A stretch of DNA of 63,993 nt, the filler included, from Dirinaria sp. TL-2023a (Eukaryota), in assembly GCA_051941275.1 (NCBI GenBank). It is 3 parts of 3 records of this genome, joined end to end, with 100 filler letters (N's around TTAATTAATTAA, not from the genome) between each part and the next. Parts side by side here need not be neighbours in the genome. Positions count along the whole stretch, not along the records: positions 21,485 to 42,836 come from JAVEBF010000260.1; 2 more parts are not named here. The stretch is one strand, 5' to 3'. Of this stretch, positions 21,385 through 53,340 are shown in pieces; within the stretch, counting starts at the first letter, position 1, and each line of letters begins with the position of its first letter. A program made the translations under genes and the position numbers. Under the pieces are notes generated by a model, which ran no database searches, had not been told where the DNA came from, and worked only from the letters and a program-made list of their open reading frames with translations.

Positions 21385-21484
21385 NNNNNNNNNNNNNNNN
21401 NNNNNNNNNNNNNNNNNNNNNNNNNNNNTTAATTAATTAANNNNNNNNNNNNNNNNNNNNNNNNNNNNNNNNNNNNNNNNNNNN
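21385..21484. other. Artificial contig linker (N44-TTAATTAATTAA-N44)
   Basis: Six-frame stop spacer at 21429-21440 flanked by Ns. Confidence 0.97.
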
Positions 21485-29056: not shown

Positions 29057-30187
29057 ATGGGGGGAAAGACGAATACCAAGTCGGCGTATTTCGACAAGTT
29101 GAAAACTTTGTTGGAGGAGTACAATTCCATATTCATCGTCCAGGTCGATAATGTCAGCTCCCAGCAAATGCACAAGATCCGGAAGAGCTTAAGAGGGGAG
29201 GGGGACGTGAAAGGTATAGTGCTGATGGGCAAGAATACTATGGTAACCTGGCAATAATCGACTTCTCTTTTACAACGCTGACGTCTGTTCTACAGGTCCG
29301 TAGAGCTATCAAAGGCTTTATCAGCGAGTTCCCCGAGTACGAGCGCTTGCTTCCCCATGTCAAAGGTATCTTGGATGAGTAACATGCTTAAAATGAAAAC
29401 TGAAATTCTGCAGGCAACGTCGGTTTCATCTTCACGAATGACGATCTCAGCAAAACGCGTGACGTTATATTGGCTGAAAAAGTCGCCGCACCCGCACGTG
29501 CTGGCGCCATTGCTCCCCTCGACGTCTTCGTTCCTGCCGGAAACACGGGTATGGAACCAGGAAAAACGTCTTTCTTCCAAGCGCTCGGAGTGCCGACGAA
29601 GATCGCTCGTGGAACCATTGAAATCACCACCGATCTGAAGTTGGTCGAAGCCGGCACGAAAGTCGGAGCGTCAGAGGCTACACTGCTCAACATGCTCAAT
29701 ATCTCTCCCTTTACGTACGGTATGAAGATCGAGCAGGTTTATGATTCCGGCCAAACATTCAGCCCCAGCGTCCTCGATATCAAAGAAGACCAATTGCTCG
29801 CGGCACTGAACTCCGCCATTAAGACTATCACCACCATCTCTCTTGCTGCCAACTACCCGACTCTCCCGTCTGTTTTGCACACCCTGATCAATGGATATAA
29901 GAAGGCGCTGGCTGTTGCAATCGAGACGGACTATAGCTGGGAGGGTATCGAGGAGCTCAAAGACCGGATCGCGAATCCAGATGCTTACGCTGCTGCCGCA
30001 CCTGCTGCCACTGAAACCGCGCCCGCGGAGGCAGAAGCTGCGCCTGCAGCGGAGGACAAGGAGTCGGAAGAGGAGAGTGACGAAGGAGGTTCGTTTTCCC
30101 CCCTGGGTGCTCCCCAGAAATCCCACTTTTGAGACTGTCGCAATTGCTAATGAGGCCTTGTCAGGTTTCGGTGGTCTCTTCGATTAA
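29057..30187 (+). CDS. RPP0: 60S acidic ribosomal protein P0 (uL10)
   Basis: [38 protein letters not shown], acidic tail [14 protein letters not shown]; three introns. Confidence 0.97.
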
Positions 30188-30687
30188 GTCCATAGGCCAA
30201 CCATTTCAAGTGAAAACCCTAATTTCACAAGCGTTTCTCCACTGAAAATTTATATCGTGACCCCATCCCACAACTGTCCTCTCTCCTCCGACTAGTACCG
30301 CATCTCAATATAGATTTAGTCTCCAGCAGCGCGCCCTTTTCAATCGAATGCCGCATCTCAATAGCTCCAGTCGTTTTCATCCATTGCAGTAAGTTCCCTC
30401 TCCCCCCCCTTCTCTATCAAAGCATGCATCCATGGGGCGGACGATTAGTCCTTTTTAACCCAGATCTCCAATATGAAGAGAGACAAAAACAAGCAACAAC
30501 CACACTCTAATTTTTTGATGACGCCCCGTTTTCTGCTCTAAGTTTCATCGCATACCACTCATTATCATTATCACACGCTAACTAATGAATGTGTTGGTTG
30601 ATCCCAGGGAATCCGTATTATCCATTTTTTTACGAAAAGTTTTCCTTGGAGTTCTATCCTGTCCCAATACGCAGCAATAAAATGATC

Positions 30688-30832: not shown

Positions 30833-31069
30833 CATCATCATCTCGTTCATAAGCTCTTTTTTTGGGTGAATTTGATTGATTCAATTTCTGTCTTCTCGGA
30901 AAAGCAATAACAATAATGATAATCATCTAAAGGAAAACAAAAGCTACCGATTTATCCCTGTTTCGCCAGCTAAACGCAAGAATTTTGTGCCCCAAGACCC
31001 GAGCACGGTCTGCAAAAATACAATTCCCAGTAATGCCAACCATCCATCCCCATGGGTGGAATAATGATG

Positions 31070-31333
31070 TTCAGCACCCGTGCTGAAATGCCCATCAAAG
31101 TAGCCAGATCCGCCTGAATAAAACTCCGTCGCAACACATTCCATGAAAAAGCTAGTGCTAGAAATCAGCTACACCATAGTTGGTGCGATTCAGCTTTATG
31201 CTGAAAATGGCGCCCATTCAGCCAGATCCGTCCTCTTAATAAACTCCGTCGCAAAAAAATCCCGAAAAGACACAACCCAATCCCAGAAGTAAAAACTCCC
31301 AATGATTTTTTCCCCAATGAAACTCCGTCGCAA
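31070..31333 (-). repeat. Dispersed repeat (2 full + 1 partial unit) downstream of MEX67 stop
   Basis: AAACTCCGTCGCAA ends at 31134, 31254 and 31333; the two full units also share TTCAGC-loop-GCTGAA and AGCCAGATCCG. Confidence 0.85.
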
Positions 31334-31442
31334 CATTCTTCAGAAAACCAAGTCGATAAATGAAAATTCTGGCAATCTTTTCTTCAATCTGTAATGTATC
31401 GTCCCACCTCTGAAATATTCCCATCGAATATGATTTGGTGGA

Positions 31443-33728
31443 TCAAAGCTGGAGGAATGCATCCTGTGGCAAATTTGGCTAGAGTATGAGTTAGTATTGA
31501 TAGACTCGCAGACTGTGGGAGTGATAGTTGAAAGCATACCTTTGCTGCTTCAAATGCTCCAAAAGCACCTTCCAGATTCCACCCATTCTCGTCGAGACAC
31601 ATGCCCGAGTATTCCAATTTCATGCCTGTACGTTGGGTCAACTCCATCGCAATCTTCTCCTTCAAAACCTGTTCCTCGGTTTTGCCCTCCATACGCTGGC
31701 CGAAATCCTCGGGTAAGCCGAGCTCCTGTGGCGTGAGCAGGTGGGTCTGGCAACGTGACCGCTTCGTATGTGATTCTGCGGCTGGGGCATCGGGTTTGAA
31801 TGCTTCAAAGCCTCCGTAGGCGCGAAGAACGAGCAGATCGCTGACAACTCGGATTCCCGCAGGGCCGGTGCCGGGACCGAGAACGAAAGTACGATCGAAG
31901 CTCCGCAGGGCGTTCGCGTGGCGGTTCCATGGTTTGTTGTTCGCTTCCATATACTGTCCGTGGACTGTGATCATCAGTCCGTTTACCCCGCCCGGTGTAT
32001 TGTCATCTGGGACACCGGGTAAAGAGCGGCATTCAATGCACCACTTCTCTTGCTCACTGATAATACTGGGATGAACCGTAGGTGGCATGACGTCGAACGC
32101 GAATTGTATCGAATTCTGCCCCTGATAAAGGCGATCGGCCCTCTTCTTCGGGTCTTTGAGTTTCTTAAGATTCCGGCTGTTCCTGAGGTAATGCTCCCAG
32201 CTCATCGGGGGCTCAGCTGACGACTGATCTCTTAGCGCAGAATTGTTAACGCTCATCGAAAATCTGGAGTATTTGTCGTAGCACTCTCGAACCAGAGCGT
32301 GCCGATCCGTGTCGAAAGCTGGGAAGAAATGGGTGACAAAATGCTTTGCGATATCCATGTCGTCTTGGAAGCTAGCGGGCGCGGTGGGTATGGATACGGG
32401 CGGAGACATAGCTGCCTGCGCCTCTTCTTCGGACCTAACCTGTGTGGTGCCAACGCGGCGAAGGCTTGGATACCACCGCATTAATTCAGCGATAAGTGTT
32501 GGTTCATTATCGACCACCGGATTTCCAGTGAGAACGACGTGTTCAAGCTTGCGGAATTTCATCCGCCAGCGGTCGAGAGACTGGATTGATTTGAATTGGT
32601 TGTTCGAAAGATCCAGGTTTTTGAGGTTGGGGAATGTTTGCGCTAGCGTGGTGACCGAGTCGAGATTTGCAAGGCCATTGCCGGCTAATGACACACTGGG
32701 AACAGCTTCCATCTTCTGCTGTTCGGTTGCGAAAACGCTATCACACACTTTCATGAGCGCAGGGAAAAACTTCGATGTGGTTGAAGTCGAGCCGAACATG
32801 CCGATGCTGACAAGTTGGGGATCTTGGCCCAGATTGGACAGGTCGAGGACTTTCGCATCGTGATCGTATCTCCGATCGAGCACGTTCTTCAGCAATTCGC
32901 TTACTTCAACTCCTTCAGCGCTCGTGGTTTTATTGGCGTTTGATGTTGGAGACTTGCGAGGCTCAATACTCATGGCGGCAATCTTCAGAGTGGCTCCAGC
33001 AAATTGGTAACCATTAAGTCTGGTTATTCTGGGAGCATCTTCCGATCGTACAGATATGATCAAAGCGTCACCCTGGTCGCGTGACTACACAATATTAGCA
33101 AGACATTCAGGCCTACAGACGGCGGGGCTAAGCATACTTTTCTTATTCTCACCACTTCGTGAGACATTGCATCTGATGGCGTGGCCTTTCGCTCCAAGAA
33201 GTCCAATAGATCTTTCACTCCACCCCCAGGATTGAATGCTGCTTTGCTTTCTTTAAGACCGTAGACAATAATGTGTTCCAAGCTTTCTATCGCCGCTTCT
33301 GCTGGTGACGCTATATTATTGTCGGCACCCCTGTTGGTTGCAGAGAAATTCCTTTTGCCCTTGCGGAGAGGTTCCTGAGATCCCAATGTACGGAGGACAG
33401 CTCTCTGAATGGAAGTGGGATCGACCCTTCTGGTGTCTCTAGAAGGATGCCCGCGACCCATGGATCCTTGCGATGACACTCGAGAGCCTGAAGGATGCCC
33501 ACGACCGGAAAATTCTTGTGATAGCACTCGAGAAGTCTTGCGCCGGTTGTCGATGCCGCGGCCCCGCCCTGTATTGGGTGATGCGGCGTCCATGTCCAGG
33601 TCGCCATCCTTGTCCACGCGTGTTGATTGTTGGCCTCGTTTTTGGATGCCACCACGGTTGAATAAGTTGTATGATGGTTTACGGCCTGCGCGAGGGCCAG
33701 TAGGAGGATTGAGAGTTTGCATAGCCAT
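31443..33728 (-). CDS. MEX67: mRNA export factor Mex67/NXF1
   Basis: DKDGDLDMD N-terminus, RRM-like LNGYQFAG, LRR (LDLSNN), NTF2-like (RSFDRTFVL), UBA/TAP-C (RTGMKLEYSGMCL..NGWN, |PNLPQDAF); introns near 33085-33137 and 31479-31539. Confidence 0.93.
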
Positions 33729-42836: not shown

Positions 42837-42936
42837 NNNNNNNNNNNNNNNNNNNNNNNNNNNNNNNNNNNNNNNNNNNNTTAATTAATTAANNNNNNNN
42901 NNNNNNNNNNNNNNNNNNNNNNNNNNNNNNNNNNNN
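42837..42936. other. Artificial contig linker (N44-TTAATTAATTAA-N44)
   Basis: Same spacer as at 21385. Confidence 0.97.
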
Positions 42937-52311: not shown

Positions 52312-52419
52312 CCCCGGTGCGTAGGAAGCACCTTCTTGTCACCGGCCCCCCAAACCCCGTGCATTGGAAACACCTTCTTACTGCTCCCCCCGTGCGTAGG
52401 AAGCACCTTCTTGCTCCCC
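52312..52419. repeat. Three imperfect tandem copies of CCCGTGCGTAGGAAGCACCTTCTT
   Basis: Copies at ~52312, ~52355 and ~52388, spanning the stop codon of the minus-strand RING gene. Confidence 0.8.
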
Positions 52420-53222: not shown

Positions 53223-53340
53223 CAGATGGTCCGGGTAGTAATCGGGGAGGAGATGGTCCACAGAACAGATGGTCCGGATAGTAGTTGGGGAGGAAGTCGC
53301 TCACGCAACAGATGATCCGGGTAGTAGCTGGGAAGGAAGA
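53223..53340. repeat. Three imperfect copies of CAGATGGTCCGGRTAGTAR..GGGARG upstream of RING gene
   Basis: Copies near 53224, 53266 and 53308. Confidence 0.7.

Follow-up and report, generated by a model that had tools for sequence, protein, structure and literature searches.

The MEX67 locus and its 3' UTR

The window, i.e., the whole 63,993-nt stretch of DNA that was analyzed, carries on its − strand an NXF/Mex67 orthologue, recognized by Pfam matches to NXF_NTF2 (3.2e-44), LRR_NXF1-5 and TAP_C, and by a weak match to RRM_9. The predicted product is identical to P0001, a hypothetical protein from a lichen-fungus genome bin. The C-terminus ...PNLPQDAFLQL (AAKPNLPQDAFLQL) is the same in both, and the stop codon of MEX67 was therefore placed at 31445-31443. 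Downstream, on the opposite strand, there is a gene for ribosomal protein P0 (Pfam RL10P_insert and Ribosomal_60s), with a stop codon near 30187 by our own reading, and the box C/D snoRNA Afu_298 at 30437-30523 (+), which scores 60.5 bits in Rfam (gathering score, 40). Given that MEX67 and P0/Afu_298 are on opposite strands, the repeated element described below lies within a 1.26-kb spacer between convergent genes. Afu_298 sits ~250 nt past the P0 stop codon, and the surrounding segment 30390-30606 (+) is intron-like (GTAAGT at 30390, CTAAC near 30578 and CAG at 30606); no RNA contig from the four runs introduced below covers this segment. The features that delimit the end of MEX67 are as follows.

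31443-31445, − strand: MEX67 stop codon (TGA), from sequence reading, with a C-terminus equal to that of P0001
31479-31539, − strand: last MEX67 intron, 61 nt, spliced out in RNA contigs X1, X2 and X3
30862-31442, − strand: MEX67 3' UTR under contig cover, with contigs ending at 30862, 30899, 30900 and 30947

The evidence for transcription comes from four small RNA runs on one lichen sample from one study; the fungus is a relative with ~96% identity, and the four runs were counted as one source. In three of the four runs, a single contig contains MEX67 exons with the last intron removed and continues unbroken through all repeats. The splice joint is 31478/31540 in X1, X2 and X3, with CT..AC at the intron ends (GT..AG on the − strand). 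Contig X1 spans 30899-31478 plus 31540-32228, X2 and X3 are alike with 3' limits at 30947 and 30862, respectively, and contig X4 covers 30900-31412. The contigs have neither a poly(A) tail nor strand information of their own, and do not represent minor isoforms. Since spliced exons and repeats are joined in one contig, the repeats are part of the MEX67 3' UTR, and the contigs support a 3' UTR of at least 496 and up to ~581 nt that contains the whole element. The initial annotation had placed the element in a presumed 3' UTR, and this placement is borne out: in these molecules the transcript is not terminated by a poly(A) site before position 31333, and the contigs extend to 30862-30947. Segment 30303-30803 has zero RNA cover in the four runs, with P0 contigs ending near 30240-30261; taken as a hint, this makes carry-over of genomic DNA unlikely.

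The indels that distinguish the relative in the region of an open reading frame starting at 31337 are 1, 2 and 1 nt long, i.e., not multiples of three, so this stretch of the UTR is non-coding. The frame itself (46 codons, ATG at 31337), which runs through the third and second copies of the motif described below, was rejected as a candidate; the motifs are out of frame with each other.

Two minor observations concern the coding part of MEX67. A tandem repeat at 33442-33533 (48-nt unit, 1.9 copies, 77% matches) falls in the low-complexity N-terminal coding region (GRGHPS.. repeat). In addition, P0002, a predicted protein with 83% identity, reads through in frame at the position of the last intron and has ~21 extra residues between ..EAAK and NLPQDAFLQL. 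The extra residues are probably a gene-caller artefact, and the read-through shows that the last-intron position is open in frame.

A diverged tandem triplication

The 14-mer TTGCGACGGAGTTT occurs on the − strand in exactly three exact copies, at 31121-31134, 31241-31254 and 31320-31333; these copies, UUGCGACGGAGUUU in the mRNA, share the strand with MEX67. An 11-mer, AGCCAGATCCG on the + strand and CGGAUCUGGCU in the mRNA, has two copies, at 31102-31112 and 31220-31230. In two of the three copies the order along the mRNA is the motif, then CGGAUCUGGCU, then a hairpin with the stem UUCAGC/GCUGAA. The stems of the two hairpins are identical and the loops are ACGGGU and AUAAA, as the initial annotation described; its three exact motif copies were likewise recovered, and the element starts 110 nt and ends ~372 nt downstream of the MEX67 stop codon, in agreement with the 110-370 nt proposed there. 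The parts of the element are listed below in the order of the mRNA, followed by the units to which they belong.

31320-31333, − strand: motif copy 3, UUGCGACGGAGUUU, from exact motif search
31241-31254, − strand: motif copy 2, from exact motif search
31220-31230, − strand: CGGAUCUGGCU block, copy 2 (repeat family D3)
31189-31205, − strand: hairpin B, from folding; the loop in the relative is GUGGA
31121-31134, − strand: motif copy 1, from exact motif search
31102-31112, − strand: CGGAUCUGGCU block, copy 1 (repeat family D3)
31070-31087, − strand: hairpin A, from folding; its CGGG loop fits the SRE consensus CNGG
31262-31363 (approximate), − strand: unit C, 5'-most in the mRNA, U-rich stretch and motif, no hairpin, from alignment
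31160-31284 (approximate), − strand: unit B, motif, 11-mer and hairpin B, from alignment
31045-31164 (approximate), − strand: unit A, 3'-most, motif, 11-mer and hairpin A, from alignment

The element is a diverged and decayed tandem triplication of a unit of ~80-120 nt. The units are arranged head-to-tail with spacings of 120 and 79 nt, and their mutual similarity is significant: the local alignment scores are 45 for A/B, 36 for A/C and 29 for B/C, each reached by none of 300 shuffles. When the units are aligned at the motif, a U-rich stretch, G(R)A and the 14-mer with AUU after it are common to all three. Units A and B additionally share the 11-mer, AUGGGC..CAUUU and the hairpin, and unit C is decayed downstream. 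Tandem Repeats Finder reported nothing at the element because the copies are too indel-rich. Membership in a dispersed transposon or MITE family would call for further copies, terminal inverted repeats and a target-site duplication; no other copy turned up in the 64-kb window or across 316 kb of loci from other fungi. Local scores between the units and the UBA-coding exon of MEX67 were only weakly above shuffles (5-8 of 300 scoring as well), and for this reason we took the resemblance to be due to chance and rejected the exon as a source of the units. An 11-nt inverted repeat, 30976-86/31363-73 (91%), is at the chance level by our own arithmetic.

Repeats of this kind are rare in the window. 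The motif is the sole 14-mer outside low-complexity sequence with at least three copies, and local exact direct repeats of at least 14 nt were detected at just two loci, including the MEX67 UTR. The other locus, 52317-52419, is a tandem repeat with a period of 33 and 2.1 copies; a further tandem repeat, at 53223-53339, has a period of 43 and 2.7 copies. When up to two mismatches to the 14-mer are allowed, a fourth copy, TTGCGATGGAGTTG, appears at 31639-31652 (−) within the MEX67 coding sequence, at the codons that specify ..IAMEL.. in the C-terminal TAP_C domain. In 100 dinucleotide shuffles, the mean number of such matches was 0.38, and four were never reached. It should be noted that the segments 21385-21484 and 42837-42936 of the window each hold two runs of 44 N separated by 12 nt.

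The predicted structure of the element is modest as a whole. For a 311-nt stretch, folding gave z = −2.04 for the mRNA strand (2 of 100 shuffles are as stable) and −1.47 for the other strand; taken whole, units A (z = +1.04) and B (z = −0.88) fold no better than shuffled sequence. Hairpin A (UUCAGC/ACGGGU/GCUGAA) is predicted by ViennaRNA to form a 7-bp stem, UUCAGCA/UGCUGAA, with a CGGG tetraloop and an outer 6-bp stem that extends it to 31062-31097; in a 41-nt context its energy is −11.2 kcal/mol (z = −2.51). Hairpin B (UUCAGC/AUAAA/GCUGAA) has a predicted 6-bp stem and reaches −11.9 kcal/mol in a 36-nt context (z = −3.42). In Rfam, the element matched no family, either at the gathering threshold or with E <= 10 as the limit, in searches of 4 kb and, with lax filters, of 601 nt; the weak rows CRISPR-DR21, ceN28 and Vax2os1_2 (E = 1.4-2.4) are outside the repeats or noise.

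Uneven conservation and narrow distribution

Conservation along the element is uneven, and two independent comparisons, among the units and between the two fungi, hint at constraint. In a MAFFT alignment of the three units, 31 of the 126 columns are identical, and the three-way identity run at the motif comprises 13 columns (14 nt by eye), a length found in none of 20,000 column shuffles. For A and B alone, 62 of 126 columns are identical and the longest run is reached in 45 of 20,000 shuffles; such long runs are less surprising here because these two units are about half identical. Compared to the ~96% relative, 30947-31442 shows 23 differences among those listed (16 substitutions and 7 indels); 62 lesser-supported differences were omitted overall, none of which would fall in 30947-31412 judging from the per-contig totals. 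None of the 23 is within the 88 nt shared between copies, i.e., the three motifs, two 11-mers and four stem arms (p = 0.011, one relative). The p-value is 0.067 if a 2-nt deletion in an A-run is placed inside motif 2, and 0.13 if the motifs are taken alone.

Of the six positions that abut the motifs, four differ in the relative (two of them in A-runs), and the loop of hairpin B differs at three of its five positions (AUAAA > GUGGA, from T > C at 31196, 31197 and 31199) while the stem is identical. Unit B is the fast-changing unit, with 8 substitutions and 1 indel in 31153-31212; no substitution is listed for the region of unit A (31009-31152). The uneven conservation gives a hint that the motif, the 11-mer and the stems are under selection, and we regard constraint on the cores as moderately supported by these comparisons. 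The initial annotation had argued for selection on RNA structure, taking conserved stems with unrelated loops as the sign of it. The uneven conservation agrees with the part of this argument that concerns selected sequence blocks. The structural part did not stand: there are no compensatory pair changes, so the data do not discriminate between structure and primary sequence or between RNA and DNA. Common ancestry of the duplicated units accounts for identical stems just as well, and stems that outlast their loops are not evidence of structure here.

To place the element in a wider range of fungi, we used Mex67 loci from a metagenome scan with a 20-sequence alignment (A1), which yielded 43 loci, the best with 58-59% protein identity; the same scan with the single MEX67 protein found no relative. 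Closer Mex67 proteins are known, namely P0002 and P0003 with 83-85% identity and P0004 with 68%. We examined 38 of the 43 loci, some with short flanks (e.g., 144 nt in L021); L016, L024, L035, L038 and L040 were dropped because their matches end before the C-terminus. Within 1.5 kb downstream of MEX67, the motif (up to two mismatches) is absent from 37 of the 38 loci, and the single match, in L043, is in reverse orientation and at the chance level. Over all 43 loci (316,307 bases) there are two matches with up to two mismatches, about the number calculated for chance. A profile HMM of the three units run over the loci with nhmmer gave a best E of 0.26, outside any UTR, and Smith-Waterman comparisons of UTRs were at the chance level, with 65-119 of 200 shuffles scoring equally well.

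Six loci, L001-L005 and L014, retain the gene order MEX67/Afu_298/P0 (16 of the 43 loci were searched with Rfam), and the snoRNA is the only part of the spacer in the window that is conserved there. The loci L001-L005 were counted as one lineage because they are 92% identical to each other; L001, L002 and L014 were found to contain no comparable repeats. A look-alike in the UTR of the L001 clade, CGAAGGAGTTTTA followed by ATGGGCAT, was rejected as a chance match (65 of 200 shuffles as good, nhmmer E = 34), and in L004 and L005 it is broken by a 5-nt insertion. Conservation near orthologous MEX67 genes, the absence of which the initial annotation had named as grounds for refutation, is therefore lacking at the distances that could be tested, and by these searches the element is restricted to a narrow lineage that includes the ~96% relative.

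Candidate docking sites and competing explanations

The best reading of these data, to which we would give slightly less than even chances, is that the element is a lineage-specific, multi-copy putative docking site for an RNA-binding protein. The element is a ~300-nt part of the long MEX67 3' UTR of a lichen-type ascomycete and was built by the triplication of the ~80-120 nt unit, in which, in the mRNA sense, a U-rich stretch is followed by UUGCGACGGAGUUU and, in the two fuller units, by CGGAUCUGGCU and a 6-7 bp hairpin. The cores have stayed identical while the intervening sequence decayed, and according to this proposal they would be docking sites for at least one sequence-specific RNA-binding protein that tunes the stability or translation of MEX67 mRNA; the element may be a regulatory site specific to a group of species. 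The data show transcription within the UTR, duplication as the origin, uneven conservation and a narrow distribution; from these we infer core binding, its partner and its effect. Against the proposal stand the absence of the motif from 37 of 38 other fungal loci, the modest folding and the lack of compensatory changes, and a conservation signal that comes from one relative and has p = 0.067 or 0.13 in the variants of the test. We favor docking sites over a neutral relic, followed by a function of the other strand or of the DNA itself and, last, by CTE-like self-regulation.

The main rival, for which there is a substantial though smaller probability, is a neutral relic. Duplicated twice in tandem, the sequence would be decaying slowly and without function in a long 3' UTR that tolerates it, and the cores would owe their identity to chance, to a low mutation rate at this site or to short-tract gene conversion. 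Such an origin accords with units that are plainly duplicates, with the A/B identity run that 45 of 20,000 shuffles reach at 62 of 126 identical columns, with the rapid change of unit B, with the absence of the element in fungi whose protein is 58% identical or less, and with the modest predicted structure. What a relic accounts for poorly is the three-way run, seen in none of 20,000 shuffles, the lack of any of the 23 differences in the copy-conserved 88 nt (p = 0.011), given that bases touching the motifs did change, and the rarity of loci with such exact local repeats, of which there are two in 64 kb. Gene conversion between copies could be another source of the identity run. Weighing these points together, we find a functionless relic possible and the docking sites somewhat better supported.

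Some features of the locus instead invite a reading on the + strand or at the level of DNA, in which unit A would be a short box C/D snoRNA, or CGG-triplet motifs would be protein-binding sites on DNA between convergent genes. On the + strand, unit A has a C-like box, AUGAUGU, at 31065-31071 (6 of 7 positions of RUGAUGA) and CUGA at both 31083-31086 and 31115-31118, at plausible spacing. The real box C/D snoRNA Afu_298 is ~540 nt upstream on the same strand, where its surroundings look like an intron; no substitution is listed for unit A over 31009-31152, and the RNA contigs are themselves unstranded. However, the putative snoRNA does not include the best-conserved 14-mer, which lies 3 nt past the D box, and unit B has lost the C and D boxes yet keeps the other blocks. 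Terminal pairing of unit A is at most 3 bp by our own reading, which leaves it without a terminal stem; no Rfam family was matched in the 601-nt search with lax filters, and in the syntenic spacers of L001-L005 and L014 Afu_298 alone is conserved, with no counterpart of unit A. Segment 30303-30803 is without RNA cover that could feed a host transcript on the + strand, and the guide strings are absent from seven supplementary files of the Neurospora snoRNA paper. As for sites on DNA, the units do not space their CGG triplets equally (13 vs 15 nt). We therefore consider it unlikely that the working strand is + or that the DNA itself is the functional form.

The initial annotation had likened the element to the constitutive transport element (CTE) and inferred a fungal analogue by which Mex67 or another RNA-binding protein would control its own mRNA; the form weighed here is one in which Mex67-Mtr2 itself would bind and regulate the mRNA. 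The element does resemble the CTE of MPMV and of NXF1 intron 10 in being an RNA element with repeats in the transcript of an NXF-family receptor gene; in the retroviral CTE, the binding loop is repeated. There is also some conservation signal in the MEX67 element. The NXF1 CTE is bound by Nxf1/Nxt and, according to PMC4338338, lies in the retained intron 10 and has a 53-nt core stem-loop whose sequence is conserved from fish to mammals. Unlike this element, the MEX67 repeats are a decayed direct triplication in a 3' UTR. The one intron close by, 31479-31539, has been removed from the contigs that bear the element, and in place of an extended stem with a conserved internal loop there are two separate hairpins of 6-7 bp. 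Across NXF orthologues, the motif is missing downstream in 37 of 38 loci, consistent with a narrow lineage, and no Rfam model was matched. No feature of a CTE was found; location, architecture and conservation all differ, and a link to animal or retroviral CTEs is unsupported.

A fungal precedent that bears on self-regulation is YRA1 of S. cerevisiae, the pre-mRNA of which has five structurally distinct intronic modules that act in Edc3p-mediated decay and translational repression and need Mex67p/Mtr2p; the yeast complex is required for translational repression through the intronic elements (PMC2864733). The likeness lies in fungal, transcript-specific cis-elements of an mRNA-export gene; however, the YRA1 modules are intronic and belong to another gene. 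Our literature search surfaced no report of an element in the mRNA of Mex67 itself. We consider CTE-like self-regulation by Mex67 highly improbable. Equally doubtful is a young, lineage-specific feedback device in which the three UUGCGACGGAGUUU copies and the hairpins would recruit the export machinery (Mex67-Mtr2 or one of its adaptors) or a decay factor such as Vts1. If such a device were real, the general mRNA export receptor would have its abundance set through its own 3' UTR, and the device would be a functional fungal counterpart of the NXF1/CTE system, of independent origin and made by tandem duplication.

Returning to the docking sites, we know of no protein that binds the 14-mer. For hairpin A, a candidate is suggested by comparison with the Smaug recognition element (SRE): Vts1/Smaug recruits deadenylation and decay, and nanos carries two SREs. 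The SRE has the loop consensus CNGGN0-3 on a non-specific stem (Smaug/Vts1; PMC4053848), and hairpin A, with its 7-bp stem and CGGG loop, fits this consensus; it is located in a 3' UTR beside a duplicated second hairpin. In contrast, the loop of hairpin B lacks CNGG in both taxa (AUAAA here, GUGGA in the relative), and the best-conserved part of the element, the linear 14-mer, is unexplained by the SRE model. The match of hairpin A was noted post hoc, against a background of CNGG hairpins in the window of 0.07 per kb per strand for stems of at least 7 bp and 0.50 for stems of at least 5 bp.

Another point of comparison is the transferrin-receptor mRNA, with five IREs in its 3' UTR. Like such tandem arrays of stem-loops, the MEX67 UTR has several copies of a small element, from which multivalent binding would follow; unlike them, its copies are visibly decaying duplicates that are conserved no further than the close relative. 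If the cores do bind a protein, the locus would show tandem duplication building a regulatory 3' UTR module in the transcript of an essential export factor, and the 14-mer in three copies would offer a short, defined RNA bait for finding that protein.

Several potential pairings within the transcript were observed in addition to the hairpins. The first six letters of the motif, UUGCGA, can self-pair between copies (with two G-U pairs), and in the minimum-free-energy fold, motif copy 3 is paired with the region of copy 2. A perfect 11-nt complement connects 31052-31062, in the UTR just past hairpin A (AUUCCACCCAU in the mRNA), to 31576-31586 in the MEX67 coding sequence (AUGGGUGGAAU); by our own arithmetic, ~0.08 such pairs are expected in 800 nt, and the relative keeps both arms unaltered.
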